A stretch of 64,000 nt of DNA, taken from contig DASTXL010000001.1 in assembly GCA_035758565.1 (NCBI GenBank), positions 139,242 to 203,241 of the forward strand, read 5' to 3'. Within the stretch, counting starts at the first letter, position 1, and every line of letters starts with the position of its first letter. The position numbers and the translations under genes were made by a program. The notes under the pieces were generated by a model that worked only from the letters and a program-made list of their open reading frames with translations, had not been told where the DNA came from and made no database searches. This DNA comes from Candidatus Saccharimonadales bacterium. GTDB lineage: Bacteria; Patescibacteriota; Saccharimonadia; Saccharimonadales; UBA10212. This document shows, in pieces, positions 701 through 64,000 of the stretch.

Positions 701-991
701 CTACGCCGCTTTTACGGCCTTGTAGAACTTCCACCCTCGTATGGGCATGAAGGCAAGCCCGATCACGCCGAGGACGTAGGCCATGAGCGACCCACTCCAG
801 TCCTGGGCGCGAGAACGGTCAGGAAGGTTCGTCAGCATGGCAGCAAAGAATGCCACCACCCCGCAGATGTACCAGACCGCACCGGCGATCTGCCATCCGT
901 GACCGCCCCAGAAGAACGCTGCCGCTTCGACGCCAGTAATGAGCACGGCGGCGAAGACGCTAATCAGAAGATCTTTCTGATGCTGTTGCAT
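701..991 (-). CDS. Small hydrophobic membrane protein (96 aa), unknown function
   Basis: ATG preceded by GGAGGTG (complement of 997-1003) at 5 nt. GC3-rich codons. 3-4 hydrophobic segments. Confidence 0.55.
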   Translation of the reverse strand: MQQHQKDLLISVFAAVLITGVEAAAFFWGGHGWQIAGAVWYICGVVAFFAAMLTNLPDRSRAQDWSGSLMAYVLGVIGLAFMPIRGWKFYKAVKAA

Positions 992-1030
992 GTTTTCACC
1001 TCCTTTCGAGACGAGTCGATTTGCTCGGGG

Positions 1031-1357
1031 CTAGCCGGTGAGGACCGGGGCATGGCTGTCGCCTCGGCGCTCGATCGTGCTGACGATCCACATGGCGCCG
1101 ATGACGACGATGACCGCGAACGCAATGACGACCACGGCGAACAGCCAAAGGGCGTCCTGCACGTTGTCGACGCGTGGCATTCGAGCGCCAGCTTTGTCGA
1201 CCATGTGGCCCGAGACAAGGACCACGACGCCAATGATCGCCCAGAAGGCGGGGACAGCCCACCACGATAGCCGGAAAAGGCCGTACGAGACGGTGACTTC
1301 TGCGGCCAGAACGAACAGCCCGGCGAAGACGAACCATCTTGCGCCTAGGAGTTTCAC
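1031..1357 (-). CDS. Small hydrophobic membrane protein (about 108 aa), unknown function
   Basis: ORF track start at 1366 overlaps the SD itself. The GTG at 1357 lies 8 nt after GGAGG. About 4 hydrophobic segments. Confidence 0.5.
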   Translation of the reverse strand: MKLLGARWFVFAGLFVLAAEVTVSYGLFRLSWWAVPAFWAIIGVVVLVSGHMVDKAGARMPRVDNVQDALWLFAVVVIAFAVIVVIGAMWIVSTIERRGDSHAPVLTG

Positions 1358-1390
1358 TGCTTTCACCTCCTTCCCAAGGTGAGTCAGGGT

Positions 1391-1579
1391 TCATTCACCG
1401 GTGCCCAGAATGAGCACGATGGCGAACGGAACCGCGAACGAAAGGCCGCAGGCTTCCATCAGGTTGTGCGGCCACCCGAAGATGTAGTGCAATGCCGCGA
1501 AGATCGCAGACAAGGGCACTCCTACGACGATTCCCGCCGGAACTGCGACGCTCAGTACGCCCCAATCGTCAGACTCCAT
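1391..1579 (-). CDS. Small hydrophobic membrane protein (about 62 aa), unknown function
   Basis: ATG at 1579 lies 5 nt after GGAGG (complement of 1585-1589). Two hydrophobic segments. Confidence 0.45.
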   Translation of the reverse strand: MESDDWGVLSVAVPAGIVVGVPLSAIFAALHYIFGWPHNLMEACGLSFAVPFAIVLILGTGE

Positions 1580-1779
1580 CTTCACCTCCTTCCGAAGGTG
1601 GATCTAGATTTGCTCCTCAAGTTGCGTCGGCTCCGTAGCGGAGCGGTAGCTTGACGCCTTTGGGAGCACGATAAAGCAAATTATACAATTTTTATAAAAA
1701 TAGGAATACCAGGGAAGAGGGCAGAGTAGTCGCTTCTTGAGTGCCAAAGTTTCCCTTAGCTAAAAATCTAAAGACCGGT

Positions 1780-1824: not shown

Positions 1825-2226
1825 CTACGCCGTCGCCGGCAGCGCGATGCTTGTCTGCTTGGGACGAGTCGAGAGGAACACCTTCCTCTCGAGATACATC
1901 CTGTCGGCGAGTTCCATCGCTGGCTGCTCGATGTTGCCCCAGGCGTTGAGCTCGTTGACCTCGAGCGCGAACTGCGTCTTGCTCAAGGCGAGTCTCTTGA
2001 CCGACTGGTTGGCGAACAGCGTCGCGATGAACTCGCGCACGTAGCTGTCGAGCTCCTCGAGCCGAATCGGTGCGCCACCGCAGGTCAGCTCGAGCTTGCC
2101 AGAGCCGGTGCGCTGAACGACGATCTCGTCCTTCTTGAAGTGGAAGTGCCCGACGACGGACCTCCGCAGCCCGTACCAGCGAGTGAAGTCGTCCACGCGC
2201 TCGAGCGGCATGCAGTGCTTAGACAC
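1825..2226 (-). CDS. Hypothetical protein (133 aa), GC-rich codon usage
   Basis: GTG start with a G-rich SD-like run about 6 nt upstream. Soluble-looking protein with no motif I recognise. Confidence 0.5.
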   Translation of the reverse strand: MSKHCMPLERVDDFTRWYGLRRSVVGHFHFKKDEIVVQRTGSGKLELTCGGAPIRLEELDSYVREFIATLFANQSVKRLALSKTQFALEVNELNAWGNIEQPAMELADRMYLERKVFLSTRPKQTSIALPATA

Positions 2227-2385
2227 AGCCTACCCCCCTTCTTAAGATGTTTGACTACTCTGCCAGTCATAAAGAAGCCCACTTGCCTAAAGTTAGCCCT
2301 ATGACGCATTAAATCTTAGCACCGTTCAACCAGAAATATAACAGTGATATTTACCACGCTTGTTTGTTATAATTTAAAGAAGATT

Positions 2386-2677: not shown

Positions 2678-4093
2678 ATGCCAAATTCTTGGCCAAAAAT
2701 AGCGGATATAGTCGCGTCTGTGCAAAAAGGCGAAACTAAAGCTATCGATCTAATTGAAAAATCACTAACTGCCATTAAAGAAAACGAAGAGTATAAAGCC
2801 ATAATCAGTACACTAGAAGACCGCGCACGCGAACGCGCGCACGAGATAGATCATATGGTAGCCAGCGGCAAAAACCCAGGCAAACTGGCAGGTGTACCAT
2901 TTATTGCCAAGGATAATTTCTTGGTATTCGGCGGTAAAACTACAGCTGCAAGTAATATTCTTAAACCCTTTGAAGCACCATACCAGGCTACGGCGATCAA
3001 TAAACTAGAGGCCGAAGGCGCCATTTGTGTGGCTAAAGCCAACCTGGACGCTTTTGCTCACGGCAGTTCTACCGAAAACAGTGATTTCTTTACCACTTTG
3101 AATCCGCACGATAAAACCCGTGTGCCGGGCGGCAGTAGTGGCGGTTCGGCGGCGGCGGTTGTGCTCGGTATGGCGCCTTTTGCGCTCGGCACCGATACTG
3201 GCGGCTCCATTCGCTTGCCAGCCAGCTTTACCGGCAGCGTTGGCTATAAACCGACCTATGGTTTAGTCAGCCGTAGCGGTGTGATTGCCATGGCTAGCAG
3301 CACAGATGTAATCGGGCCAATTGGGAGTAACGTAGATGACGTGGCGTTGGTGCTTGATGTGATGGCTGGCAAAGACGAGCTAGATAGCACTACGATTGAT
3401 CGCCAAGATACTTATGTCGCCGGGCCAGCTAGTTTCAAGGGCAAAAAAGTTGGCGTTGTCAAAGAGTATTTTGAAGGCCTAGAAGGCGATGTTAAGCGCG
3501 TTGTAGACCAGGCTATTGAAAAGCTTCGTTCCGCAGGCGTCGAGATCAGTGAGATTAGCTTGCCAAGTTTGCCGTTGGCGCTCGCGGTTTATTATATTAT
3601 TTGTCCGGCTGAAGTTTCGTCTAATTTGGCCCGCTACGACGGCCAGCGCTACGGCTATTTTGCCGACAAAGCTAGAGATTTAAACGAAAGTTACGAGCTG
3701 GCGCGCGAAGAGGGTTTTGGCACGGAAGCAAAGCGTCGTATTATGATTGGCGCTTATGTGTTGAGCTCTGGCTATTACGACGCCTATTATAAGAAAGCGC
3801 AAACGGTGCGGACAAAAATTATCAAAGAAATGGATGAGGCGTTCGCGAAATTTGATTTTTTGGTTGGGCCGACAGCACCTATGACTGCTTTTAAAATTGG
3901 CGAAAAAACCGCTGACCCATTGCAAATGTACTTAACTGATATCATGACCGTAGCTGCCAATATTACCGGCAACCCAGCTATCAGCGTGCCGGCCGGCAAG
4001 GTTGATGGTTTGCCGGTTGGTCTGCAGATGATAGCCGACCGCCGTCATGATGCAGAATTATTATCAGCGGCAAAAGGGTTCGAGGAGCTATAG
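2678..4093 (+). CDS. gatA: Asp/Glu-tRNA amidotransferase subunit A
   Basis: Amidase signature GGSSGGSAAAV..GTDTGGSIRLPA. Confidence 0.95.
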   Translation: MPNSWPKIADIVASVQKGETKAIDLIEKSLTAIKENEEYKAIISTLEDRARERAHEIDHMVASGKNPGKLAGVPFIAKDNFLVFGGKTTAASNILKPFEAPYQATAINKLEAEGAICVAKANLDAFAHGSSTENSDFFTTLNPHDKTRVPGGSSGGSAAAVVLGMAPFALGTDTGGSIRLPASFTGSVGYKPTYGLVSRSGVIAMASSTDVIGPIGSNVDDVALVLDVMAGKDELDSTTIDRQDTYVAGPASFKGKKVGVVKEYFEGLEGDVKRVVDQAIEKLRSAGVEISEISLPSLPLALAVYYIICPAEVSSNLARYDGQRYGYFADKARDLNESYELAREEGFGTEAKRRIMIGAYVLSSGYYDAYYKKAQTVRTKIIKEMDEAFAKFDFLVGPTAPMTAFKIGEKTADPLQMYLTDIMTVAANITGNPAISVPAGKVDGLPVGLQMIADRRHDAELLSAAKGFEEL

Positions 4094-4501: not shown

Positions 4502-5929
4502 ATGAGTGATTACTTGCCGACAATCGGAATCGAAACGCACGTTCAGCTAAAGACCAAAACCAAGATGTTTTCGGCTGTGGGCAATGATGCTCGAGACGCG
4601 GCGCCAAATACTTTGATTAGCCACATTGATGTCGGTATGCCTGGCGCTTTGCCGGTTTTGAACGAAAAAGCTTTGGAGCTTGCTTGCCGAGCCGCTTTTG
4701 CACTAAATACTACTCCGCAGAAATTCTCTAAGTTTGAACGCAAGCATTATTTTTATCCGGATTTGCCCAAAGGCTATCAAATTACTCAGTATGAAAACCC
4801 AATTATTATCGGCGGCCATGTAGAATTGCCGGACGGCAAAAAGATCGGCATCACCAGGGCGCACCTGGAAGAAGATGCCGGCAAAAACACTCACCCGGCC
4901 AGTGCTGATTATAGCTTGGTGGATTTGAACCGCGCTGGTACGCCGCTGCTAGAAATTGTCAGCGAGCCGGACATTCATAGTGCCGCTGACGCTAAAGCTT
5001 ACGTACGCGAACTTTATTTACTTATGAAATATGCAGACGTTTCTGATTGCGACCTGTACCTCGGCCACATGCGTTTTGACGTGAATGTCAGCGTTAGCAA
5101 AGATCCCAGCAAACCCGGAATCCGCGCGGAAGTTAAAAACCTGAATAGTTTCCGTAGTGTAGAGGCGGCGATTGAGTACGAAATTAAAAGGCAGACTGAA
5201 CTTTTAGAAAATGGCGAAAAGGTTGTGCAGGAAACCCGCGGCTGGGACGAAGATAAGCAAGTTACAACCAGCCAGCGCAGCAAAGAAGAAGCCGAAGATT
5301 ATCGCTACATGCCCGAACCGGACATCCCCCCAACCGAACTTAGCGATGAATTCATTGAAAATATCAGAAAAGACATGCCCGATCTGCCAAGCTATTACAG
5401 AAAAACGCTGAGCGATATTGGAATTGATAAGAAAGCAACTGAAGATATTGTTGCTATTCCCGACGTAGCTAGAAATGTCGACCTTGTATATCGCTACGAT
5501 GGCAAGTTGAATGCAAAATTCGGCAGACGGATAGCGTTCTTGCTTTTACGCCCACAACCCGAAGAGCCGGACAATACTGACGCAAAAGTCGACATAAGCA
5601 TCAAGAACCTTGTTAAATTATGCCAGATGGCAGAAGACGGACTATTAAGCTCTACGGCCACTAAGGAAATTTTCGATGAGATGCTTATCTCTAAAAATGA
5701 TCCTGAGCTAATTGCAAAAGAAAAGAAACTAATTCAGGTTTCGGATGAAGGGGCGATTGAAGAAATTGTTAAACAAGTCATTGCCGAAAACGAAAAAGCC
5801 GCCAATGATGTTAAGAATGGCGAAATGAAAGCTATCAGCTTTTTGGTCGGCCAGGTCATGGCAAAATCCAAAGGCCAAGCCAATCCGGGTTTAGCTCAGG
5901 CAATAATCAAAAAACAACTGGGGGTATAA
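4502..5929 (+). CDS. gatB: Asp/Glu-tRNA amidotransferase subunit B
   Basis: IGIETHVQL..RKHYFYPDLPKGYQITQ..HLEEDAGK motifs and a C-terminal GatB/YqeY tail. Confidence 0.95.
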   Translation: MSDYLPTIGIETHVQLKTKTKMFSAVGNDARDAAPNTLISHIDVGMPGALPVLNEKALELACRAAFALNTTPQKFSKFERKHYFYPDLPKGYQITQYENPIIIGGHVELPDGKKIGITRAHLEEDAGKNTHPASADYSLVDLNRAGTPLLEIVSEPDIHSAADAKAYVRELYLLMKYADVSDCDLYLGHMRFDVNVSVSKDPSKPGIRAEVKNLNSFRSVEAAIEYEIKRQTELLENGEKVVQETRGWDEDKQVTTSQRSKEEAEDYRYMPEPDIPPTELSDEFIENIRKDMPDLPSYYRKTLSDIGIDKKATEDIVAIPDVARNVDLVYRYDGKLNAKFGRRIAFLLLRPQPEEPDNTDAKVDISIKNLVKLCQMAEDGLLSSTATKEIFDEMLISKNDPELIAKEKKLIQVSDEGAIEEIVKQVIAENEKAANDVKNGEMKAISFLVGQVMAKSKGQANPGLAQAIIKKQLGV

Positions 5930-5930
5930 A

Positions 5931-6824
5931 ATGGCGCAAAAACCAATTAGAAAAGCGGTTATCGCAGCCGCCGGCTTCGGCACACGTTTTTTGCCGCAGA
6001 CCAAAGCGATGCCCAAAGAAATGCTGCCAGTCGTAGATAAACCGATCATTCAGTATGTAGTCGAAGAACTCGTAAACGCCGGAATCGAAGACATCATAGT
6101 CGTTACCGGCTATTCCAAACGGGCGATTGAAGATCATTTTGATAATCCCAGCCAAGACCTTGTTAGCAATCTTAAAAACGGCGGCAAAGACGAGCTTTTA
6201 GATCAAATCAAAAAAATTGCCAACCTCGCGAACTTTGTTTATGTGCGCCAAAAAGGTCCATACGGCAATGCTACGCCGCTTTTGAATGCTGAACATTTGA
6301 TTGGCGGCGAACCTTTTATTTATACATGGGGTGACGATTTCATATTGTCCAGCCCGCCGAGATTTTCGCAATTAGTGAGGGCCTACGATCAGACCAAAGC
6401 TTCGGCAATTTTTGCTTGTTTGCCGGCCAAACACGAAGAAGACTATAAACGCTACGCCTTTGTGGGCGGCAGCGAGAGGCAGGGCCAGTTGTTGCGGATG
6501 GAAAGAATCATAGAAAAACCCGGTAGCCGGGAGTCCTCGCCATCCAATTTAGCCAGTCTGAGCGGTTACGTTTTTGATTCAAAAATCTTTGACTACATAA
6601 AACAGGATTTAGAGAAGCTGGAGCCCAAGCATGAATTAATTTTTCAGCCGTCGGTGCAGCGTATGATGGATGATGGTCTGGACGTTTATGCATGCGAAAT
6701 CGACGGCACGTATTACGACACCGGCAATAAGCTCGAGTACCTTAAAACGGTTGTCGACTTTGCGCTAATGCACGATGATATCAAAGATGACTTTGCCGAC
6801 TATTTGCGCCACTTGACACTGTAG
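5931..6824 (+). CDS. galU: UTP-glucose-1-phosphate uridylyltransferase
   Basis: AAGFGTRFLPQTKAMPKEMLPVVDKPIIQYVVEE N-terminal signature. Confidence 0.9.
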   Translation: MAQKPIRKAVIAAAGFGTRFLPQTKAMPKEMLPVVDKPIIQYVVEELVNAGIEDIIVVTGYSKRAIEDHFDNPSQDLVSNLKNGGKDELLDQIKKIANLANFVYVRQKGPYGNATPLLNAEHLIGGEPFIYTWGDDFILSSPPRFSQLVRAYDQTKASAIFACLPAKHEEDYKRYAFVGGSERQGQLLRMERIIEKPGSRESSPSNLASLSGYVFDSKIFDYIKQDLEKLEPKHELIFQPSVQRMMDDGLDVYACEIDGTYYDTGNKLEYLKTVVDFALMHDDIKDDFADYLRHLTL

Positions 6825-6839
6825 CGTTATACTTGGCTT

Positions 6840-7097
6840 ATGAATACAGCAGCCCTAGTCTTACTAATAATTGTTAGTTCGGTTCTGTCCGTTTTTTTGG
6901 TTTTTCTGATCGTGGCCCTCGGCTACTTTATCAGCGTGCTTAAACAAGTAAAAAGAATTACGGCGCGCGCTGAGAGCGTGGCCGATACTGTAGAATCAGC
7001 AGCCAGTGCGTTTGAACGCGCCAGCTCGCCCATCGCGGTTATTAAATTAATCGGCAAGATCGTCGAACAGACGGCCGGCTTTAAAAAGAAAGGCTAG
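6840..7097 (+). CDS. Small membrane protein (DUF948-like)
   Basis: One N-terminal TM helix followed by a helical tail. Adjacent to a YtxH-like gene, as is common in Firmicutes. Confidence 0.55.
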   Translation: MNTAALVLLIIVSSVLSVFLVFLIVALGYFISVLKQVKRITARAESVADTVESAASAFERASSPIAVIKLIGKIVEQTAGFKKKG

Positions 7098-7103
7098 ACT
7101 CTC

Positions 7104-7520
7104 ATGAGAATGCGTAAAGATCCTAAAACTGGTCGAAAAATTGCCCTTGGCGCGGCAGTCGCCGGCATAGGCGGATATTTAGCCGGTGTTTTGACAGCCC
7201 CTAAAAGCGGCAAAGATACGCGGGATGATTTACAAGCTAAAGTTAATGATTTTAAAAGCGACGCCGCCGAACAACTGCAGGCTGCCCAAGCAGAATTAGG
7301 GGATACTCTTAAAAAAGCTCAGGCCAAAACGGTGGCTTTGAGTTCCCAAGCCCGTGATGAATTTAACGAGGCAGTAATCCGCGCTAAAGACGCCCAGAAC
7401 AAGGCTAAAATGGTGCTCAAGGCCTTAAAAGCCGGCGAAGCTGACGATCCAGAGCTTAACAAAGCCGTGAAGCAGGCCCGTCAAGCTCAGAAGAATCTTT
7501 CCAAATTCCTTAAAAGCTAG
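7104..7520 (+). CDS. YtxH-like protein
   Basis: N-terminal TM helix, then a KSGKDTRDDL motif and a long Ala/Lys/Gln-rich helix. Confidence 0.6.
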   Translation: MRMRKDPKTGRKIALGAAVAGIGGYLAGVLTAPKSGKDTRDDLQAKVNDFKSDAAEQLQAAQAELGDTLKKAQAKTVALSSQARDEFNEAVIRAKDAQNKAKMVLKALKAGEADDPELNKAVKQARQAQKNLSKFLKS

Positions 7521-7552
7521 TCTATCTGGCGCCAAATACGGTTATAAGCTGC

Positions 7553-7595
7553 GGTGCGCACTCTCTGTATGTAGAATACAGTTCGTTTGCGCACC
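7553..7595. repeat. Nested hairpin (GGTGCGCA...TGCGCACC enclosing CTGTAT-gtaga-ATACAG)
   Basis: 8-bp outer stem and 6-bp inner stem read directly from the sequence. The core is shared with 22715-22734. Confidence 0.5.
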
Positions 7596-12920: not shown

Positions 12921-13580
12921 TGGGATCGAGGAGACGCCGTAGAGGCGTCTCCGTGCTCGATCCTTCGTTCATGCTCAGGCGCCGTAGTCGGCGATCGTCG
13001 CCTTGGCGTCGGCCATCGCGGTGTACTGCTCACCCGGCTTGTTCGTGTTGCAGAACCAGCGCGGGCGTTCCTCTTGGCCCTTCAGCCACCCCTCCCGCGT
13101 CTCGCGGGTGAGATAGTTGAACGTGACGGCGGCGTGACCAGCTTCCATTGCGTCCTGTAGCTCCGACTGGCCGCTGGCACCCGCGATGGTGCCATCGACC
13201 TTGGTCGAGAAGCCGTAGGTGAAGTCGCCATCGCCTGACTGGGTGAGGTCGACGTAGACGCCGAAGCCTGCCGGCTGTCCGTGGTCGCGGTGGTAGACCG
13301 CCTTGGCGATCGCATTCGGGACAAACCGCTCGCCCTCTGGGCCGATGGCGATCGTCGCCAGCAGCGTGTCGCTGCTGGGTTACCAGAGCGGCGCCATCGG
13401 GTTCAGGAACGCCAGGCCGAGGCTGTCGCGGCTGTACTTGCGGTCGGCGAAGAGCCTCTCCACGTGCTCGGCGCGCAGGACGGAGATGCGATCGACGATT
13501 GCGATCAGCATCTCGTTGGGCACCGTGTGGCTCCATGGATTCTGGAACACACGGACTTGCCGTGCCAACATGTGCACTCT
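12921..13580. other. GC-rich island C
   Basis: 38/60 G+C at 13021-13080 against 25/60 at 13621-13680 (hand counts). Confidence 0.7.
12975..13577 (-). pseudogene. GC-rich gene of unknown function interrupted by an in-frame TAA
   Basis: A single frame with GC3-rich codons runs from the ATG at 13577 (SD AAGGAG 7 nt upstream) to the TGA at 12975-12977. It contains a TAA at 13380-13382 (..NPMAPLW*PSSDTLLATIAIGPEGERF..). Confidence 0.6.
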
Positions 13581-13620
13581 CCTTGTCGAAGGATCGAAAC
13601 GTGCATATTTTACAATAAAA

Positions 13621-39256: not shown

Positions 39257-39341
39257 GGGGATGTGGTGAAATTGGTATACACGCGTGCCTTAGGAGCACG
39301 TGCCGCGAGGCGTGAAGGTTCAAGTCCTTTCATCCCCACCA
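39257..39341 (+). tRNA. tRNA-Leu (anticodon UAG), CCA encoded
   Basis: Acceptor stem GGGGATG/CATCCCC, 3-bp D stem, anticodon stem CGTGC/GCACG with loop cTTAGga. Long variable arm, T arm GAAGG-ttcaagt-CCTTT, and discriminator A followed by CCA. Confidence 0.9.
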
Positions 39342-55986: not shown

Positions 55987-56055
55987 GTTTTCAAAAGCCT
56001 GACCTCTGCGAAATAAATCACTGCTCGCTTCTCCTATAGCTTGGATGATAAAATA

Positions 56056-57576
56056 ATGCCAAGGATAGGTGGTGTGATTAAGAAAAAAGTCAGCGAGGCT
56101 TCTCCTAAACGTTTGCTTCCAGAGCAAGCGCTTCGTTCGGTTACATCTAAAAGCGGCCTGGGCGTTTACGCTAGTTCGGATACTTTATTCAAAGATGCCG
56201 TCTTCGGCCGTGACTCTTTGGAGGTGGCCGAAGACTTGTTATATACCAAGCCAAAGTTGGTCAAGAACATAATACTGACGATTGCCAGCCTGCAGGGCGA
56301 AAACCGCCACAGCGCCAACGAAGAAGAGCCTGGCAAAATCATCCACGAATACCGAACCACCACTATTGACGGTAAACCCATTGACCAAGTATCGTTGCAG
56401 ATTTTTGACCGCCTAAGCCAGGAATGGGGCGGCTCGAGTACTGTTATGGCTTACTACGGCTCGATCGACTCCACGCCGCTATTCATTAGATTGTTAATAA
56501 GATACGTCCAAAAATACGGGCCCGGCATTTTGCTTGAGCGTGTCAAGCTCAGAAGCGGTGAGCTAGTATCGGTTTTAGAAGTCCTCGACAGAGCCGTTCA
56601 ATGGATGCTTGATAAGCTTAGTGAGTCAAAGTGCGGATTATTAGAATACGTCCGCATAAATCCTCACGGGATTAAAAACCAGGCCTGGAAAGATTCTGAC
56701 GAGTTTTACATGCACGCCAACGGCCGTCATGCCAACCACGAAAAGCCCATTGCTTCTATAGAAGTCCAGGCCCTGGCTTACGACGCACTGGTATTAACGG
56801 CGGAGCTTTTGCCATCTTGGTCAAAGTTAAAGCCAGTAGCCGCTCGTCTGCAAAAAAACACCGTAAAGCTGCTCTGGATGGAAAAAGAGCAGTATTTTGC
56901 CCTGGGATTTGACCACTCGGCCCGTAGTAGACGCCGTGTGCTTAAGGTTAGCACCGCGAATCCTGCCGAAATGCTTAATAGTCGTTTCTTTTTAGATATG
57001 GAAGAGACGGATCGTCAAAAATATGTAGGCGCGATTATCATGCACATTATGAGCTCGGATTTTTTGACCGATGCCGGTATCCGCAGCCGCTCACTCAGTG
57101 AAGCGAATTTGGTACACCACTGGGATTACCACGGCTCATTTGTTAGCTGGCCCAAAGAAACTTACGACATAGCTAATGGGCTACGGCTGCACGGTTTTCC
57201 CAGATTAGCGAACGAACTATTCAACCGCATCCTAAACATAACTCACGCTTCGCGCTCCTACCCGGAGTTTGTGTACGTCGACAGGCAAGGCCGGGTGCTG
57301 GGCACTGGCTTAGTTTCTAGCCACCACGGCGAGATTATTTTGGTCGAGGCCCAGAATCGCCCAGAAAGAATCCAGGCCTGGACGGTTTCTGCCGCTCTAG
57401 GCATTCTGGCCAGAGACAAAATGCCCAGACCTGATGCCGCCAGTGAATGGCAGAAGAAGCTCGAGAGTCAAATTCTAAAGTCAATTCCTCACGTGAACTT
57501 ACTGAAATCCAAAAAGGAGCTTAACGCTCGCTACCCGTCATATCCTTACGAGCTAAAAGGCGGATTAACAAGATGA
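56056..57576 (+). CDS. Amylo-alpha-1,6-glucosidase (GDE_C-like, six-hairpin glycosidase) family protein
   Basis: FGRDSLEVAE, GKIIHEYR, YYGSIDSTPLFI, NQAWKDS and IEVQALAYDAL blocks are typical of archaeal-type debranching-enzyme-like proteins. Confidence 0.75.
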   Translation: MPRIGGVIKKKVSEASPKRLLPEQALRSVTSKSGLGVYASSDTLFKDAVFGRDSLEVAEDLLYTKPKLVKNIILTIASLQGENRHSANEEEPGKIIHEYRTTTIDGKPIDQVSLQIFDRLSQEWGGSSTVMAYYGSIDSTPLFIRLLIRYVQKYGPGILLERVKLRSGELVSVLEVLDRAVQWMLDKLSESKCGLLEYVRINPHGIKNQAWKDSDEFYMHANGRHANHEKPIASIEVQALAYDALVLTAELLPSWSKLKPVAARLQKNTVKLLWMEKEQYFALGFDHSARSRRRVLKVSTANPAEMLNSRFFLDMEETDRQKYVGAIIMHIMSSDFLTDAGIRSRSLSEANLVHHWDYHGSFVSWPKETYDIANGLRLHGFPRLANELFNRILNITHASRSYPEFVYVDRQGRVLGTGLVSSHHGEIILVEAQNRPERIQAWTVSAALGILARDKMPRPDAASEWQKKLESQILKSIPHVNLLKSKKELNARYPSYPYELKGGLTR

Positions 57577-58700
57577 GAGTTGCCATTATCGCCCAACCGT
57601 ACGTATCTGTTCCGCCAAAGAAATACGGTGGCACCGAAAGAGTTATTTTTAATCTTATAAACGGTCTTTTAGAGGCTGGCCACGAGCCTATTTTGATTGG
57701 TCCAGGCGACTCTAAGGTTGAGTGTGAGCTGATACCCACAGTCGAAAAATCAATTTTTTTCCCGCGCACCAAGTCCGGACTTGCTAAATTTAATAAAGAA
57801 ATAGCCAAGATTAGTAGACGAACCGATAGGCTAATTAGGCAAACGTTGCCCAATGTCGACGTGATACACTCGCATGGTTTTGACATCCGCAAGTTTCAAG
57901 ATTTTCCGAACGTTACCACCTTGCACGGCCCGATACTTTTTGACGATATAGAAGACTTGTTATCGCCAAAACGCAAAAACATGAATTATGTTTCGATATC
58001 AAAAAACCAGCAAACTGTTTTGCCGCAACTTAGTTATCTTGGTGTTGCCTACAACGGCGAGGATCCTAAAGATTTTCCGATAGTTAAAAAGCCGCAAAAT
58101 TATGTCTGTTTTGTCGGCCGGTTTGACCGCGAAAAGAATCCTCATCTGGCTATACAACTGGCTATCCATTACGGCATCAAGATCAAGCTGGGTGGAAAAA
58201 TAGACTATCTTGGCAACGACTATTTTGAATCTGAAATTAAGCCGTACATCAAACACCCTCTCGTTGAATACTTAGGCGAGCTCGGGCCTAAGGAAGTCGT
58301 AGAAGTTCTCAGCAAGGCAAAATGCAACTTGCACCCCACAGGTTTCAGGGAGCCTTTTGGTTTGACAGTGGTTGAGGCCGCCTACTGCGGTACGCCAACA
58401 CTAGCTATTGCTCGCGGCTCAATGGCCGAGCTTATCGAAGACGGCCGAACAGGAATCTTAGTTGAAGATTTGATCGAGGGCTATAATCGCCTAGACGAAT
58501 GCTTCGCGATGGATAGGGATTATATTGCGCATCGCGCCAGAATGTTATTTAACTACCAAGCAATGACCAGAAGCTATATTGAAGCCTATGAAAAAGCGAT
58601 TGATATAGATAAGCGGCGCCGATCAGAAACTAATGCGCTGCGCAGCTTTGTTAAAAAAATTAGCCGCAATCCTTTTACGGATTACACCGTTATTCCTTAG
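57573..58700 (+). CDS. GT4-family (GT-B) glycosyltransferase
   Basis: PKKYGGTERV N-terminus and the C-terminal EPFGLTVVEAAYCGTPTLA..G.MAELIEDGRTGILV motif. 4-nt overlap with the upstream gene. Confidence 0.85.
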   Translation: MRVAIIAQPYVSVPPKKYGGTERVIFNLINGLLEAGHEPILIGPGDSKVECELIPTVEKSIFFPRTKSGLAKFNKEIAKISRRTDRLIRQTLPNVDVIHSHGFDIRKFQDFPNVTTLHGPILFDDIEDLLSPKRKNMNYVSISKNQQTVLPQLSYLGVAYNGEDPKDFPIVKKPQNYVCFVGRFDREKNPHLAIQLAIHYGIKIKLGGKIDYLGNDYFESEIKPYIKHPLVEYLGELGPKEVVEVLSKAKCNLHPTGFREPFGLTVVEAAYCGTPTLAIARGSMAELIEDGRTGILVEDLIEGYNRLDECFAMDRDYIAHRARMLFNYQAMTRSYIEAYEKAIDIDKRRRSETNALRSFVKKISRNPFTDYTVIP

Positions 58701-58799
58701 GTCTCTTAAGTTGACCAGTGCGCAAGAATATTAGAGCAATATAAGAGGTTTATCGTACAGAATTAGCCACAACTCTTTCTTCGAGCAGGCGATAATTCG

Positions 58800-58827
58800 T
58801 TGACAACAGAGTGAAAATCGTTAAAAT
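58800..58827 (+). promoter_or_regulatory. Promoter of the FabD-like gene
   Basis: TTGACA (58800-58805), a 16-nt spacer, and TAAAAT (58822-58827). The ATG lies 9 nt further on with no SD. Confidence 0.55.
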
Positions 58828-58836
58828 CAGGCCCAA

Positions 58837-59778
58837 ATGAGTATCGAATGTGGAGCTAGCGAAAAGGCCTCGATAGAAATCCCTGGTCAAGGTGCTCCTT
58901 TTTATGAACTCGTCCGTGACCTGTCTGACCCCAATGTAGTCGGGAGTGAGGCCAACGAAGTTGTCCAAGAGGTGTTCGAGGAGGTCCAACAAGCCACAGG
59001 TATAGACGTAGAAGCGGCTGCCCGCGAAATGGCCGAAGGTAAGCTGGTTACCCCAAGCATCGCCCAGGTTGTACTCTATGCAGCCGGATATGCTGGCGGA
59101 CGGGTACTTTTTAAGAAAGGCGTTAAAGCGGAATATTATCGGGGGCACAGCGCCTCGGCAATGGTTGCCGCCGGGTTGGCGGGCGTGATAGCCGTGCACG
59201 AAGGTGCTAAGTTAATGCAGAGGCGGGGCGAACATATGGCTGAAGCTGCTCATAACAACCCAGGCACGGTGGCGGTAACCGATCTATCGCTAGAGAAGTT
59301 GGCCGAAATTTGTAAAGCTTGCGGCGTTTATATGGCTAACCTCAATTCACCGGTGCAGACAATGATATCCGGACGAGTGCCCAACATTGTCCAGGCTCGA
59401 AAAATGATAAAGAGTCTAGGCTCAAGAGCGACAATTTTCAGGGATTGGAGCCAGGGCCCGGTGCATACGCCTTTTTTTCAAGAGGCCGAAGACAGATATC
59501 GCGCTGATCTGGCGGTACCGGAGGTGTCTGATCCGCAGGCGGGCTTCGTTAGGAACATCGATGGCGAGATAACGAATGATGCGGAAAGCATACGCGAAGA
59601 CCTGGGCGGCATCGCTCAACAGGTTAACTGGACCAAAGGCGGTCTGGCTCTGCTTGCCTCTGGCGTGCGCAGGTTTGTAGAAATCAGTCCGAAAAGCCGC
59701 AAAATTACGTCCGGCTTAGCCCAAGATCTAAGTCCAGATCACGAAATCCAAACCGGGCATCTTTTTGACTACCTATAA
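58837..59778 (+). CDS. FabD-like acyltransferase (malonyl-CoA:ACP transacylase family)
   Basis: Alignable by eye to FabD: PGQG.., GHSASAMVAAG (GHSxG), QRRG (Arg117 equivalent), NLNSPVQTMISG, GPVHTPFF, VNWTKG. Confidence 0.7.
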   Translation: MSIECGASEKASIEIPGQGAPFYELVRDLSDPNVVGSEANEVVQEVFEEVQQATGIDVEAAAREMAEGKLVTPSIAQVVLYAAGYAGGRVLFKKGVKAEYYRGHSASAMVAAGLAGVIAVHEGAKLMQRRGEHMAEAAHNNPGTVAVTDLSLEKLAEICKACGVYMANLNSPVQTMISGRVPNIVQARKMIKSLGSRATIFRDWSQGPVHTPFFQEAEDRYRADLAVPEVSDPQAGFVRNIDGEITNDAESIREDLGGIAQQVNWTKGGLALLASGVRRFVEISPKSRKITSGLAQDLSPDHEIQTGHLFDYL

Positions 59779-59794
59779 GCAGAGCTTTACCTCT

Positions 59795-59823
59795 TTACAA
59801 ACGGCTTGTCTTTACCTTATAAT
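59795..59823 (+). promoter_or_regulatory. tuf promoter
   Basis: TTACAA (59795-59800), a 17-nt spacer, and TATAAT (59818-59823). Confidence 0.6.
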
Positions 59824-59910
59824 TAACTGGTATAACCGCATGGTGGCTATTGCTGCTATGCACTAAACAAGTAAATCAATTAACAAGTAACTAATTTAAG
59901 GAGTCCGAGA

Positions 59911-61092
59911 ATGGCAGATTTTGATCGCAGTAAGCCGCACGTCAACGTTGGTACTATGGGCCATGTTGACCACGGTAAAACCACTTTAACCGCAGCTATT
60001 ACCACTGTTTTAGCTAAAAAACTTCCAAGCGACGTAAACAAGCCGATCGCTTACGACCAGATCGACAACGCACCCGAAGAAAAACAGCGCGGTATTACCA
60101 TCGCTACCTCACACCAGGAATACGAAAGCGAAAAGCGTCACTACGCTCACGTCGACATGCCTGGTCACGCTGACTACATCAAGAACATGATTACCGGTGC
60201 CGCCCAGATCGACGGCGCTATTTTGGTAGTTTCTGCCGCTGACGGCCCGATGCCTCAGACTCGCGAGCACGTGCTTTTGGCCCGCCAGGTTGGCGTTCCT
60301 AAAATCCTTGTTTTCTTAAACAAGATGGACCTTGCTGATCCAGAACTGGTTGAGCTTGTTGAAGAAGACGTTCGCGACCTGCTGGCCAAGAACGACTTCG
60401 ACCGTGACTGCCCAATCATCAAGGGTTCTGCTACTAAAGCTTTGGAAGGCGACGCCGCTAACGAAGACGCTATCATGGAGCTCGTTCACGCTATGGATGA
60501 CTATATTCCAGAGCCACAGCGCGACCTCGATAAGCCATTCCTAATGCCGGTGGAAGACGTTTTCTCAATCAAAGGCCGCGGTACTGTTGCTACCGGCCGT
60601 GTTGAGCAAGGTGTCGTAAAGGTTAACGAAGAAGTCGAAATTGTTGGTATCCGCCCAACTACCAAATCTGTCGTCACCGGTGTTGAAATGTTCAAGAAGA
60701 ACCTTGACCAAGGTCAGGCTGGTGACAACGTTGGTGTTCTGCTCCGCGGTGTTGAGCGCGATGACATTGAGCGCGGCCAGGTTCTTTGTAAGCCAGGCTC
60801 TATCACTCCGCACACTGAATTTGACGCTGAAGTCTATATCCTCACCAAAGAGGAAGGCGGCCGCCACACTCCTTTCTTCAAGGGTTACAAGCCGCAGTTC
60901 TACTTCCGTACCACGGACGTAACTGGCGAAGTTGAGCTCCCTGCAGACAAAGAAATGGTTATGCCAGGTGATACTGTAACCTTCAAGGTTAAGTTGATGG
61001 CTCCAATTGCTATGGACCAAGGTTTGCGCTTCGCTATCCGCGAAGGCGGCCGGACGGTCGGCGCTGGGGTTGTTACCAAGATCGACAAATAA
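59911..61092 (+). CDS. tuf: Elongation factor Tu
   Basis: [33 protein letters not shown]. Confidence 0.98.
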
Positions 61093-61110
61093 GCAGCAAC
61101 TACTGCAACG

Positions 61111-61145
61111 AAAAAGCCTCGGATAAAACCGAGGCCTTTTCTTTT
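61111..61145 (+). terminator. tuf terminator
   Basis: GCCTCGG-ataaaa-CCGAGGC followed by CTTTTCTTTTT. Confidence 0.7.
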
Positions 61146-61295
61146 TGGCTATTTTCGCAGTTTTTGCTCCGAGGCTCGCTCATCGTACCATTACGTACGA
61201 CTCGCTCGCTTCTCGCAAAGAACTACAAAACTATCTCAAAATGCAGCACTTGCTTGAACGAACCACTAAACTAGCTGTAATATAGAGGATAAGCG

Positions 61296-61964
61296 GTGGG
61301 CAGAAGGGTTGTCATGGACAGCATCGTCCACTTTTTTAATTCCAATTTTTTTATAGCCATCGTTACGTTAGCAGTAGGGTCTGCCGCCTATTTCGTTTAT
61401 AAAAAACAGCAAAAGGATCACAAAAAGGATGCAGCGAATATAATTTTGCTGGAAATTCAAAACGCTGAGAGAGAAATTAAAAAGGTCAAGTCTTCAATTG
61501 CTAACGAACAGCTCAAGCAAGACCTTCAAGTAATGCCCCTGGAAAGCTGGAGCAAATACAAGTACTTATTTGTTAGAGACTTTGACCGAGATGAATGGGA
61601 TGCAATATCTGATTTTTACAGCAGATGCCTGCTCATAGACGAGGCGGTCAAATATAATAACTCTGCCTTCTGGGACGATGTGGCACAAATTCGTGTCAAT
61701 AAACAACGAGCACTAGCATATTATGCTAAGACAGCGGTGGACGAATTAGACACTTCTCCCGAGGATGATGTTAAAGCTGAGTACATAAGAAAGTCAGATG
61801 CTTTTAACCTTTTTTACGCTGATTTAGAGCGGCAAGGAAAGTTTGGCTACGCTCCCGTTAAGCCAATTAACGATACAAAACTATACCTAGACGATCTGCA
61901 GATTAATTTATCTCAAACCACAGTCGGAACAAAACTAAAGCAACTGGCGAAAGTTAACATTTAA
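61296..61964 (+). CDS. Hypothetical membrane-anchored protein (222 aa; alternative ATG at 61314)
   Basis: N-terminal TM helix (FFIAIVTLAVGSAAYFVY). No other motif. Confidence 0.5.
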   Translation: MGRRVVMDSIVHFFNSNFFIAIVTLAVGSAAYFVYKKQQKDHKKDAANIILLEIQNAEREIKKVKSSIANEQLKQDLQVMPLESWSKYKYLFVRDFDRDEWDAISDFYSRCLLIDEAVKYNNSAFWDDVAQIRVNKQRALAYYAKTAVDELDTSPEDDVKAEYIRKSDAFNLFYADLERQGKFGYAPVKPINDTKLYLDDLQINLSQTTVGTKLKQLAKVNI

Positions 61965-62075
61965 CACTTTCTTTAAACTCAACTCTATTGTATAATCGCC
62001 TCTGTTAACTAATCGCGTGCGAGAACTTGGCGGTCACTCATAATCCCGTTCAAGATTACGCCGCAAGGAGAACCA

Positions 62076-62396
62076 ATGGCGGCGGTAAGCCCCAACCAGT
62101 TCCAGGAAGTCTATTCTGATATGGGCAGCAATCCGCTGATCAGAGAGGTGTATCACGCTCAGTTCGGCTTTATTCAAATCGAGGTGCCGGAAGGTACCGA
62201 CGAAACCAAGGCTGAGGTGCGTTTTTTGGAGCAAGGCTGGGAACCCTACCAGGCCAATGCCGTTGGTATATCAAGAGAAGGCTTTGTGGCTTCCCTGTCG
62301 GACGAGGGCAGGGTGAGGCAGTTTGCTGCTCTTGTGTTGCACGATCAGTTACAACAACTAGCTAACAATGAACAAAATGAAGAAAGGATTCATTAA
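62076..62396 (+). CDS. Hypothetical protein (106 aa) translationally coupled to rpsJ
   Basis: SD AAGGAG 6 nt upstream. The stop TAA overlaps the rpsJ ATG (TAATG). Confidence 0.5.
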
Positions 62397-62728
62397 TGGC
62401 TGAAGCCAAAGAACAAAACGATGGTAAGCAGCGGATTCGCATTCGCCTGAAGGCTTACGACCACAAAGTAATCGACCAAAGCGCCAAGCAAATTGTAGAT
62501 ACCGCCTTGCGTACTGGCGCCAAGATTGCCGGGCCGATTCCGCTACCGACTCGCAAGAGTACTTTTACGGTGGTTAAAAGCCCGCATGTCTATAAAAAAG
62601 GCCGCGAGCAGTTCGAGATGCGCGTGCACAAACGCCTTATCGACATTACTGATCCAACGCCCAAAACCATCGACAGCCTGATGAATCTCAGCCTGCCGGC
62701 TGGTTGTGACGCCGAAATCAAAATGTAG
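62396..62728 (+). CDS. rpsJ: 30S ribosomal protein S10
   Basis: [36 protein letters not shown]...FTV.KSPHV.K..REQFEMR.H.RLIDI. Confidence 0.97.
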
Positions 62729-62730
62729 TC

Positions 62731-63057
62731 ATGAAGATTGAAGACTTAGGCAGATCGTTTTCAGGGGATGGTGACGTAGTCCTGAGGCGGTTTGCTACTT
62801 CGTCGCCACTTAGCGTAGGACTTCTATCAACCGAGTTAGACAATCTAGTGGACACTCCTGCGGAAGTTACTGCGCAAACAGATGATTCCACATGGATTAT
62901 CGGATCCATAAGTTTGGGCAAAATATTCATCGATTTTGTTGATGTACGCACTGAAAGCGAAAGGTTACCAATTGAAATAGTGGCCTCACGCGATAAGATC
63001 AAGCAAGTGTTTACTTCTGATGAATCGGTCGTAGAGCTTGTGACCTCGCTGATGTGA
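62731..63057 (+). CDS. Hypothetical acidic protein (108 aa) where rplC is expected
   Basis: ORF starting 2 nt after the rpsJ stop. No SD and no motif. Confidence 0.4.
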
Positions 63058-63145
63058 GGAAAGTCACAGCGACGATTCAGCTTCGTAAGGTTAAATATAA
63101 GCGTGGGCGGAACTAAAAAACTGAGACATGTTTATAAGTCCGCTG

Positions 63146-63175
63146 AAAAAGAACCCGAGATGACGGGTTCTTTTT
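63146..63175. terminator. Bidirectional terminator
   Basis: AAAAAGAACCCG-agatga-CGGGTTCTTTTT forms a perfect 12-bp stem with A/T runs on both sides. Confidence 0.75.
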
Positions 63176-63379
63176 AGTTTTAATTTATCTATTAAAAAAT
63201 TAGCAACTATCCCGTGAGCGTGGTCACAGCTTAATGGTTTTAAGCTTTTAAAATAATAGGTTGCTCTGGAGATAGTTCAGAGCAAAGGTAGCCGAGCTTT
63301 ATCAACCGAAAGGAGGATTTTGCGGCTACAACACAAGCTATCGTTTCTCAACCATCTACCCTGTAAGGAGGGTATAGAC

Positions 63380-63940
63380 GTGAGTGAAGGAAGACTGGCC
63401 GGGATCCTGGGCGTTGCCTGCCGCGATCTGCGTGAGGGTCGCAACCTGCACGCCCTGCAGCTGTTCGGTTCGCTGGTGGGGGTGGAGTTCACCTACCAGC
63501 GGGACGCCCGACTGGGCGAGGCAACGGCCTTGGCTCGCATGGGTCGCTTCTCGGAGGCCGAGGACAAGCTCCAGCAGATCGTGAACGACTACTCGGAGCG
63601 GACGGTCTTCAAGGCCGACTCGCTCCGGGCACTGGCCGAGGTGCGGATCGTTCTGGGCAACCTCGAGGGGATCGACGACATCCTCGAGGAGGCCGCCCAG
63701 ATCTACCAGATCCACAGCTTCACCCGGCCCTGCGGTGCGATCGTGCATCTGCAGGCCCTGGTGGCCATGCGCCGCGGTGACATGGACGAAGCCGTGGAGA
63801 AGATCCGGTGGGCCACGACGCTCACCGAGATCAAGATCCCCGACGTCGTGCCGGCGGGCTTCGGCAGCATCGAGCCCCTGCACGACGGAACCGTGTCCGA
63901 GTCGACCGAGCTCATGACGCTGGTGACCAGCGCTGGCTAG
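63380..63940 (+). CDS. GC-rich helical-repeat (TPR-like) protein, island D
   Basis: GTG start 8 nt after AAGGAGG. GC3-rich codons. ALARMGRFSEAEDKLQQIV-type repeats. All overlapping ORFs look like shadows. Confidence 0.55.
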   Translation: MSEGRLAGILGVACRDLREGRNLHALQLFGSLVGVEFTYQRDARLGEATALARMGRFSEAEDKLQQIVNDYSERTVFKADSLRALAEVRIVLGNLEGIDDILEEAAQIYQIHSFTRPCGAIVHLQALVAMRRGDMDEAVEKIRWATTLTEIKIPDVVPAGFGSIEPLHDGTVSESTELMTLVTSAG

Positions 63941-64000
63941 GAGGCGGTAGCCCTAAAAACCCGGGTGGGATGGCGACCGCGGCTTTTACATAGCGCGGCA

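Follow-up and report, generated by a model that had tools for sequence, protein, structure and literature searches.

The window analysed here comprises 64,000 nucleotides of a metagenome-assembled genome (MAG) of Candidatus Saccharibacteria (Saccharimonadales), with a GC content of approximately 48% (assembly GCA_035758565.1, contig DASTXL010000001.1, positions 139,242 to 203,241 of the forward strand). It ends shortly after rpsJ, the gene for ribosomal protein uS10, with an orphan gene, a terminator-like hairpin and a GC-rich gene at the place where rplC would be expected. In the original prediction, this arrangement was read as an S10 operon that had been broken by DNA from a high-GC donor. 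The observation as such is confirmed, and the interpretation is partly supported, in its descriptive parts; both main inferences, the exceptional character of the insertion and the foreign donor, are unsupported. Instead, we consider it rather probable that two things are superimposed at this locus, namely a variable spacer between rpsJ and rplC and a self-contained, resident GC-rich gene unit with a maintained high GC content at third codon positions (GC3) and paired mRNA ends.

The spacer between rpsJ and rplC

The gene rpsJ (62396-62728, plus strand) is identified by Pfam (PF00338, E=1.5e-36) and, above the cut-off, by NCBIfam (rpsJ_bact, TIGR01049/NF001861). It was compared with a related set of 80 Saccharibacteria species-representative loci, 68 of which hold both rpsJ and rplC, and shares 78-95% identity with the rpsJ genes of this set. 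Directly upstream lies hyp106, a 106-aa open reading frame (ORF; VFT49_01075, 62076-62396, plus strand), the stop codon of which overlaps the rpsJ start (TAATG); it has no match in Pfam or NCBIfam and no tblastn match in the 80 related loci, and forms a protein cluster of one. The predicted acidic orphan of 108 aa (orph108; 62731-63057, plus strand) is indeed present and starts 3 nt past the rpsJ stop. It is a putative gene, and its composition is native (GC 0.45, GC3 0.43; the native genes used as reference have GC ~0.48 and GC3 ~0.50). A search of 1.84 billion representative proteins returned orph108 itself alone, one further contig has it, and no match was found in Pfam, PHROG or PADLOC. 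That contig, L001, is a 6,748-bp Logan contig of run SRR25158471, which was retrieved by exact look-up of the 108-aa ORF and extends the locus beyond the window.

Downstream of orph108, the hairpin AAAAAGAACCCG / CGGGTTCTTTTT (63146-63175) forms a perfect stem of 12 bp, five of them G-C pairs, with a 6-nt loop and A5 and T5 tracts; the 3' arm of the stem ends in T5, and the tail AGTTTTAATT follows. As far as can be judged from its sequence, it has the stem and U-run form of an intrinsic (Rho-independent) terminator. It had been described as bidirectional, which is correct insofar as either strand can form it (-18.2 and -17.1 kcal/mol, z -3.7 and -4.5), but there is no converging minus-strand gene in the window, and its use is evident in the plus direction only. 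The genes hyp106, rpsJ and orph108 probably form a small transcription unit with hyp106 as the first gene, in which rpsJ would be co-transcribed with both flanking ORFs and terminated at 63146-63175.

The gene rplC, which was correctly reported not to follow rpsJ directly, lies outside of the window and begins 3,175 bp past the rpsJ stop in L001. Past a GC-rich gene for a tetratricopeptide repeat (TPR)-like protein, which is described below, L001 contains a 69-aa Gly/Lys-rich ORF, a minus-strand ORF of 190 aa, a second GC-rich patch (D2, ~300 bp), which encodes a 29-aa hydrophobic peptide, a long hairpin, and finally rplC. The spacer therefore holds five small units on both strands (orph108, the TPR gene, the 69-aa ORF, the 190-aa ORF and D2) in addition to the terminator, and none of its genes is present in any of the 80 related loci. 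Neither Pfam nor NCBIfam has a family for the remaining ORFs of the gap and of the islands discussed below. The long hairpin (L001 3165-3233, between D2 and the rplC leader) is very strong and consists of 19-nt perfect outer arms and an inner stem; it has no copy in the window and corresponds to no Rfam family, and the surrounding 321-nt region folds with z = -8.45.

The original prediction regarded the ribosomal cluster as nearly invariant and an insertion therefore as striking, and it named a natural separation of rpsJ and rplC in relatives as the observation that would speak against it. Exactly this separation is found in Saccharibacteria. In the 68 loci, rpsJ and rplC are separated by 134 to 6,082 bp (median 1,285 bp), with gaps of less than 300 bp in five loci and of at least 1 kb in 41. 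The 203 gap ORFs of at least 50 aa fall into 140 clusters, and 121 of these are singletons. The rpsJ-rplC junction is thus a lineage-wide variable spacer and not a broken operon. Its sole widely recurrent occupant is a ~90-aa two-helix membrane protein with the motif HEHFxIDRKIEYA, which occurs in the gap of 36 of the 68 species, always on the plus strand and at variable position (for example L004 11840-12160). This protein has no Pfam family and is found neither in the window nor in L001.

From rplC onward the order rplC-rplD-rplW-rplB-rpsS-rplV is intact (L001 3459-6539, assigned by Pfam; L3_bact equivalog E=1.6e-70). A promoter with the consensus TTGACA-17-TGnTAnnCT precedes rplC and is followed by a leader motif of ~65 nt, CTTGGT...AGGTC[stem]GAAACC...ACCAAG, and then by a T-run. 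A covariance model of this leader (R1), built from 29 instances, finds exactly one match per locus in 61 loci, each just upstream of rplC, and none in the window. In L001 the match is located at 3329-3397 (~65774-65842 in contig coordinates, past the window), and the other 60 are among the loci L003-L075. In the R1 alignment, 95.5% of the cells are paired and 12 of 14 pairs show compensatory changes, which was reached by none of 500 shuffles. Rfam has no family for the rplC leader, and it gave no match in 59000-64000, so that no leader upstream of rpsJ was found there.

The canonical S10 operon of the E. coli or B. subtilis type has the order rpsJ-rplC-rplD-rplW-rplB-rpsS-rplV, with an L4-controlled leader upstream of rpsJ. 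The same genes are found in the same order from rplC onward in the present genome, but rpsJ, which is attached in the canonical operon, lies 3.2 kb away from the block (median distance in the class, 1.3 kb) and neither abuts rplC nor opens a single transcription unit with it. The leader is structured and ends with a hairpin and U-run as an attenuator would, but it is placed before rplC and not before rpsJ. It is possible that it represents a new ribosomal-protein attenuator, with L4 or L3 as putative ligand. The ribosomal block of this class begins with rplC and has a leader to itself, and rpsJ stands apart as a short unit. Such a split is characteristic of the lineage, because the gap is variable in the 68 loci and because rplC has its own promoter and leader.

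As the rpsJ unit is probably terminated and the rplC block has its own promoter and leader, strain-specific small genes would accumulate in the spacer without harming ribosomal gene expression. In this respect the spacer resembles flexible genomic islets, which are formed by strain-specific genes at operon boundaries: it is hypervariable, consists mostly of ORFans, lies between conserved genes, and its content is missing from this site in relatives. It differs from them in that it has no integrase, tRNA or att site, and in that the atypical composition is a heritable gene-family trait rather than a donor signature. The sole tRNA of the window is located at 39257-39341, and no mobility domain was found in the genes near any island of the window. 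Upstream of rpsJ the gene order is rpoB, rpoC, rpsL, rpsG, fusA, three inserted genes, tuf and two ORFans. Here, too, the junctions are interrupted, the one between fusA and tuf (56041-59778) by a 511-aa orphan, a GT4 glycosyltransferase and a FabD-like acyltransferase, and the one between tuf and rpsJ (61296-62396) by the two ORFans; the tuf-rpsJ distance in the Saccharibacteria relatives is 8-2,518 bp. In the literature, no earlier description was found of the rpsJ-rplC split, of the rplC leader or of GC3-rich gene families in Saccharibacteria.

The TPR gene and the ends of its message

The predicted rise in GC content is real, as the values increase from 0.385-0.445 over 63100-63399 to 0.67 from 63400. 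The rise belongs to the TPR gene VFT49_01090 (63380-63940, plus strand; 186 aa), which starts with GTG at 63380, 8 nt after the Shine-Dalgarno sequence (SD) AAGGAGG at 63365-63371, and has a GC content of 0.66 and a GC3 of 0.89. The plus frame is the coding one, because GC at the three codon positions is 0.68/0.42/0.89, compared with a native GC3 of ~0.5. Overlapping ORFs do exist, but at a length of at least 60 aa they fill five of the six frames and not all six as had been stated, and these shadow ORFs are a by-product of high GC. The antisense 175-aa ORF at 63356-63883 was not accepted as a gene, since it does not have the right GC3 pattern and is interrupted in L082. Also the alternative TTG start at 63320 (206 aa) was rejected, as the upstream sequence is not conserved as coding and has indels and stops in relatives.

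An AT-rich upstream region including the 5' untranslated region (5'UTR; 63200-63379, plus strand) is conserved in DNA alignments of the gene family and contains a GAAAGGAGG box at 63308-63316 (plus strand). Past the stop codon follows a nested GC-rich hairpin, CCCGGGTGGG...CCCGCCCGGG, the 5' half of which lies at 63960-64000 (plus strand) and which continues to ~64015, past the window. In L001 (1496-1580) it folds at -44.2 kcal/mol, and family members have an equivalent; it is a probable terminator or stabiliser. The GC-rich segment, the extent of which had been given as unknown, comprises the coding sequence (CDS) and this 3' hairpin, amounts to ~640 bp and ends ~20 bp past the window, where GC drops after L001 position 1575.

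The predicted TPR-like helical repeats are supported by structure modelling. An AlphaFold model based on the family alignment (pLDDT 83) has eight helices, which form four TPR-like hairpins, and a disordered tail, and Foldseek retrieves KLC2, sNASP, OGT and consensus TPRs at probability 1.0 with TM-scores of 0.6-0.68. The stacked helix-turn-helix superhelix of TPR proteins is thus found in the model, while the sequence reaches no curated TPR family: there are seven Pfam matches of TPR type, all below gathering scores, the best being TPR_MalT with 21.3 bits against a cut-off of 45. PHROGs gave no match for the TPR gene and the 190-aa ORF, and PADLOC gave two weak matches only (E 0.002 and 0.008). 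The protein is probably a scaffold that binds a partner protein. With TPR scaffolds such as kinesin light chain TPR, sNASP, the Rap/Phr regulators and PcrH-class chaperones it shares the four helical hairpins, and it differs from them by a family-specific conserved C-terminal motif in the disordered tail. This motif, EIKIP(E/D)VVP(S/A)GFG(S)IE (63821-63874, residues 148-165), extends from the end of the last helix into the low-confidence, apparently disordered tail and is likely a short linear interaction motif. The protein would accordingly be a peptide-binding scaffold via its conserved EIKIPEVVPSGFGIE tail or its groove.

A homologue search of 5.8 billion proteins returned the TPR protein itself and three relatives, and a profile search raised the family to 13 members, all from metagenome contigs; the named records are three, and all of them are Saccharimonadales. 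In this family, a conserved motif of the 5'UTR appears to pair with bases located 0-8 nt past the stop codon, and the arms change with compensation (GTCATCGTT/AACGATGAC, GCCATCGTTC/GAACGATGGC, TTGCCGTTG/CAACGGCAA). In the window, the 5' arm is GCTATCG (63337-63343, plus strand), which has a pair probability of 0.71, and the 3' arm is CGGTAGC (63945-63951, plus strand), 5 nt past the TAG stop, which complements it with one G.U pair. End-helix probabilities of 0.67-1.0 were obtained in eight of eight partition-function folds of whole ~700-nt units, and 5'/3' duplexes have mean energies of -25.2 kcal/mol for cognate ends, -20.0 for non-cognate ends and -13.2 +/- 3.9 for native genes. According to covariation and folding, the 5'UTR thus appears to pair with the post-stop sequence across ~600 nt. 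The unit would be composed, in this order, of an AT-rich promoter and 5'UTR, SD, GTG, GC3-rich CDS, 3' arm and GC-rich hairpin.

Comparable flanks are found at other GC-rich islands. As originally claimed, these belong to the same compositional class as the TPR gene, with a GC3 of 0.79-0.89 in the minus-strand ORFs 1031-1390, 1825-2229 and 12975-13379. Island A1 (703-1603, minus strand) is a GC3-rich three-gene operon for small membrane proteins (62, ~108 and 96 aa) and is enclosed by a perfect 12-nt inverted repeat (633-644 / 1612-1623). Perfect inverted repeats also flank the GC3-rich ORF of island A2 (1825-2229, minus strand; 12 nt, 1720-1731 / 2253-2264), the island B gene with its 198-codon frame (12975-13571, minus strand; 11 nt, 12957-12967 / 13587-13597) and D2 (13 nt, L001 2616-2628 / 3014-3026). 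The longest exact complementarity of 5' and 3' flanks is 6-9 nt in 47 native genes versus 11-13 nt in A2, B and D2. In family B, the arms are located just 5' of the SD and just past the stop codon, and they covary, TTCGATCCTTC/GAAGGATCGA being replaced by TCAATCCTCC/GGAGGATTGA in L097, with a G.U pair in L095.

Further observations concern the islands themselves. The A1 genes are each preceded by (A/G)AAGGAGGTGAA, and a TATAAT promoter lies ahead of the operon; they have no Pfam or PHROG family, apart from two weak sub-threshold Pfam matches of the middle ORF. The island B gene contains an in-frame TAA (13380-13382, minus strand) where four of four inspected homologues have Gln (PLWQPSS). The frame is otherwise intact, and the TAA may be a nonsense mutation, mark a pseudogene or be a sequencing error.

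Type I toxin mRNAs provide the closest known parallel, in which a 5'-3' long-distance interaction keeps the mRNA stable and translationally inert (PMC6733600). As in these mRNAs, the 5'UTR would be linked by a helix to the stretch immediately past the stop codon of the same mRNA, and compensatory changes are seen in two families. A toxin/antitoxin system is not apparent. Type I toxins are small and hydrophobic, whereas the TPR protein (186 aa, soluble) and the family-B protein (198 aa) are not, and only the 29-aa peptide of D2 is toxin-like in size; no antisense RNA was identified, although no experimental search was made for one. Also, the arm covers the SD in type I toxin mRNAs, while the 5' arm of the TPR family is located ~20 nt upstream of it, and the loop consists here of ~600 nt of GC3-rich coding sequence. 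By analogy, the GC-rich, end-closed TPR mRNA would be long-lived and/or translationally gated.

An alternative that we regard as unlikely, though the best of the rival explanations, assumes a pool of GC-rich mobile cassettes that circulate among Saccharibacteria and are acquired independently by each genome, by natural transformation or with integrative elements, with the repeats as DNA-level ends and the spacer as one landing site. Indeed, the contexts of the TPR family differ, with the rpsJ-rplC gap here, DUF1801 in L082, SnoaL in L084 and a GH26 gene in L086. In L095, the family-B gene and three further GC3-rich genes follow each other (5001-7586), ~3-4 kb from a serine recombinase and a Replic_Relax gene, and L092 and L097 have IS1595 transposases in the vicinity. 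A direct repeat of 13 bp, AAAGCAAATTATA (610-622 and 1673-1685), lies on either side of island A1 and occurs nowhere else in the 64 kb; its first copy is the end of uvrB including the TAA stop minus the last base, and the arrangement resembles a target-site duplication. The repeats of A1, A2 and D2 lie outside terminator-like hairpins, and these inverted repeats may be DNA-level cassette ends. However, the repeat sequences are wholly different between the families and no common recombinase site is evident; G.U (G.T) pairs are tolerated in the arms, and substitutions in them are compensatory, as expected of an RNA helix. The TPR unit has no flanking direct repeat of at least 8 nt, no mobility gene is found near any island of the window, and the pool alone would not account for GC-rich genes on element backbones that are not GC-rich. 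A more specific reading of the TPR unit as an integron cassette or a miniature inverted-repeat transposable element was rejected, as there is no shared repeat and there are no direct repeats.

Composition and origin of the GC-rich genes

The family allows the composition of the TPR gene to be followed over many loci. In each of 12 inspected loci, the TPR gene has a GC content of 0.60-0.66 and a GC3 of 0.77-0.90, while the remaining sequence averages 41-53% GC and most neighbours have a GC3 of 0.33-0.66. Apart from the window, 11 loci representing at least nine further samples thus have the same GC-rich CDS between low-GC flanks. In three genomes the synteny FAD-oxidase, ABC_tran, ABC2, (Band_7), TPR gene is shared; the identities among them are 57-69% for the TPR gene and 41-79% for its neighbours, a pattern of co-divergence. 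At fourfold-degenerate sites, family members are identical at 0.37-0.57, compared with 0.32-0.42 expected from composition alone. As synonymous sites are thus near saturation, the GC-richness appears to be near equilibrium and not an un-ameliorated remnant.

The ~200 nt upstream of the gene are AT-rich and conserved in the family, with the GAAAGGAGG box, a G(C/T)CATCGTT motif and the SD, and they are contiguous with the GC-rich CDS. The GC step at the start codon is therefore passed on together with the gene rather than being the scar of an insertion. The TPR 5'UTR has no counterpart in Rfam. As the cause of the high GC3, selection for optimal codons was discarded: most fourfold sites of the TPR gene carry G (0.44) or C (0.42), but tuf, with T at 0.49 and G at 0.08, avoids G-ending codons. 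GC-biased gene conversion is unlikely, although no formal test was made, as the GC step follows the CDS boundary and non-conserved UTR positions stay AT-rich.

The GC3-rich genes of other islands and loci show similar features. The island B protein has 28 homologues of 62-84% identity, of which the sole named one is a Saccharibacteria protein and the others come from metagenome contigs. Its family has a GC3 of 0.72-0.88 in L093, L095, L097 and L098, compared with 0.35-0.55 in most neighbours (measured in L093 and L095). The PG_binding_1 family is GC3-rich (0.78-0.84) in three genomes (L086 7966-8712, L091 3992-4702, L092 11390-12118). GC-rich islets number four in the 64-kb window and one in ~1 Mb of related rpsJ loci; as they are far denser in the window, they are a feature of a subset of Saccharimonadales.

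The original prediction explained the composition by recent, un-ameliorated import into the S10 cluster from a high-GC donor such as an actinobacterial host, with the other islands (A to C) coming from the same clade. We now consider this explanation improbable. It is true that a GC3 of 0.89, G/C-ending codons and a GTG start resemble actinobacterial usage, and opportunities for transfer exist, as the Saccharibacteria in culture have Actinobacteria as hosts and show natural competence (PMC10633639) and some Saccharibacteria phages are targeted by Actinobacteria spacers (PMC10746230). Also the absence of the TPR gene from the rpsJ-rplC gap of the 80 relatives and the uneven density of the islets would fit an import. 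However, the proposed search with the 186-aa product revealed no donor: among the 5.8 billion proteins there is no homologue outside the 13-member family and none from a high-GC organism. No match was found in phage records by tblastn. The alignment of the family retrieved nothing from metagenome contigs, and an exact conserved DNA pattern of 27 nt was found neither there nor in viral contigs. The restriction of the family, its GC-rich CDS within 41-53% GC surroundings in 12 of 12 loci, a GC3 that is still high with fourfold sites near saturation, the synteny in three genomes and the inherited GC step with conserved AT-rich upstream sequence all argue against repeated acquisition from such a donor. 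Since the island B family is equally restricted and GC3-rich in the other genomes checked, a single donor clade for the islands is not supported either. Of the hallmarks of a genomic island, atypical composition is found here, but donor homologues, recent arrival and mobility genes are not. The evidence therefore speaks against an import from a high-GC donor, or at least against a recent one, and the family members are best described as resident genes of loci with ~41-53% GC that appear to be partly vertically inherited.

The remaining explanation, an assembly or binning chimera near 63300-63400 that joins DNA of a high-GC organism, would fit the sharp GC step and the metagenomic source but can practically be dismissed, since the Logan contig from SRR25158471, which was assembled independently, agrees with the window in all 1,555 overlapping bases, goes back to native composition and continues into rplC-rplV, the MAG has VFT49_01075 to 01100 consecutively and in the same order on one 483,507-bp contig, the architecture of a GC-rich CDS with low-GC flanks recurs in the 11 other loci, and the conserved AT-rich 5'UTR is contiguous with the CDS; as the original prediction assumed, the junction is not an assembly artefact.

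Several points also weigh against a resident gene unit with paired mRNA ends. The transcript ends, and hence the presence of both arms on one RNA, are deduced from sequence. In A1, A2 and D2, the 3' arm is located beyond the terminator-like hairpin, an arrangement equally compatible with ends at the DNA level and with pairing of the RNA. The helix of the TPR unit in the window has only 7 bp with one G.U pair and is missing from the minimum free energy structure, and the PG_binding family and the three other GC3-rich genes of L095 have no flank repeats. Vertical inheritance rests on three genomes, as the family is tiny and most contigs are short. A remote high-GC ancestor may exist, as the homologue search needs shared 5-residue words. 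Finally, the persistently high GC3 has no mechanistic account here; the candidates are selection on the mRNA and a GC-rich exchange pool. Taken by its parts, the GC-rich gene combines a compositional islet with an apparent long-range mRNA helix, both of them known kinds of element, and the puzzle lies in its composition.

Consequences for Saccharibacteria

Atypical GC content is commonly taken as a sign of horizontal transfer. In the present case it appears as a stable inherited trait of gene families within one lineage, which calls for caution with island predictors and wherever gene transfer from host to epibiont is claimed in Patescibacteria. The spacer between rpsJ and rplC, being variable, is a handy marker for strain-level gene flux. 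With rpsJ detached and a leader ahead of rplC, the unit of ribosomal protein autoregulation would have to be redefined for this class.

Beyond the superposition of a variable spacer and a resident GC-rich unit, a wider proposal can be made, which we put forward tentatively and hold to be possible rather than likely. According to it, some soil Saccharimonadales carry a class of small, lineage-restricted genes of one common design, with an AT-rich promoter and UTR, a CDS held at a GC3 of ~0.8-0.9 in a genome of ~48% GC, and covarying 5'UTR and 3'UTR arms whose pairing closes the mRNA; these genes would have been shaped by selection at the RNA level for compact, RNase-resistant and gated "stored" messages and would not be a foreign trace, and a new rplC leader RNA would govern the detached S10 block. 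If this is true, the stored messages could serve the host-free or attachment phase of an epibiont that is unable to make nucleotides. They would then represent a new layer of post-transcriptional control in organisms in which regulation is barely known, and one that is testable in genetically tractable Saccharibacteria.

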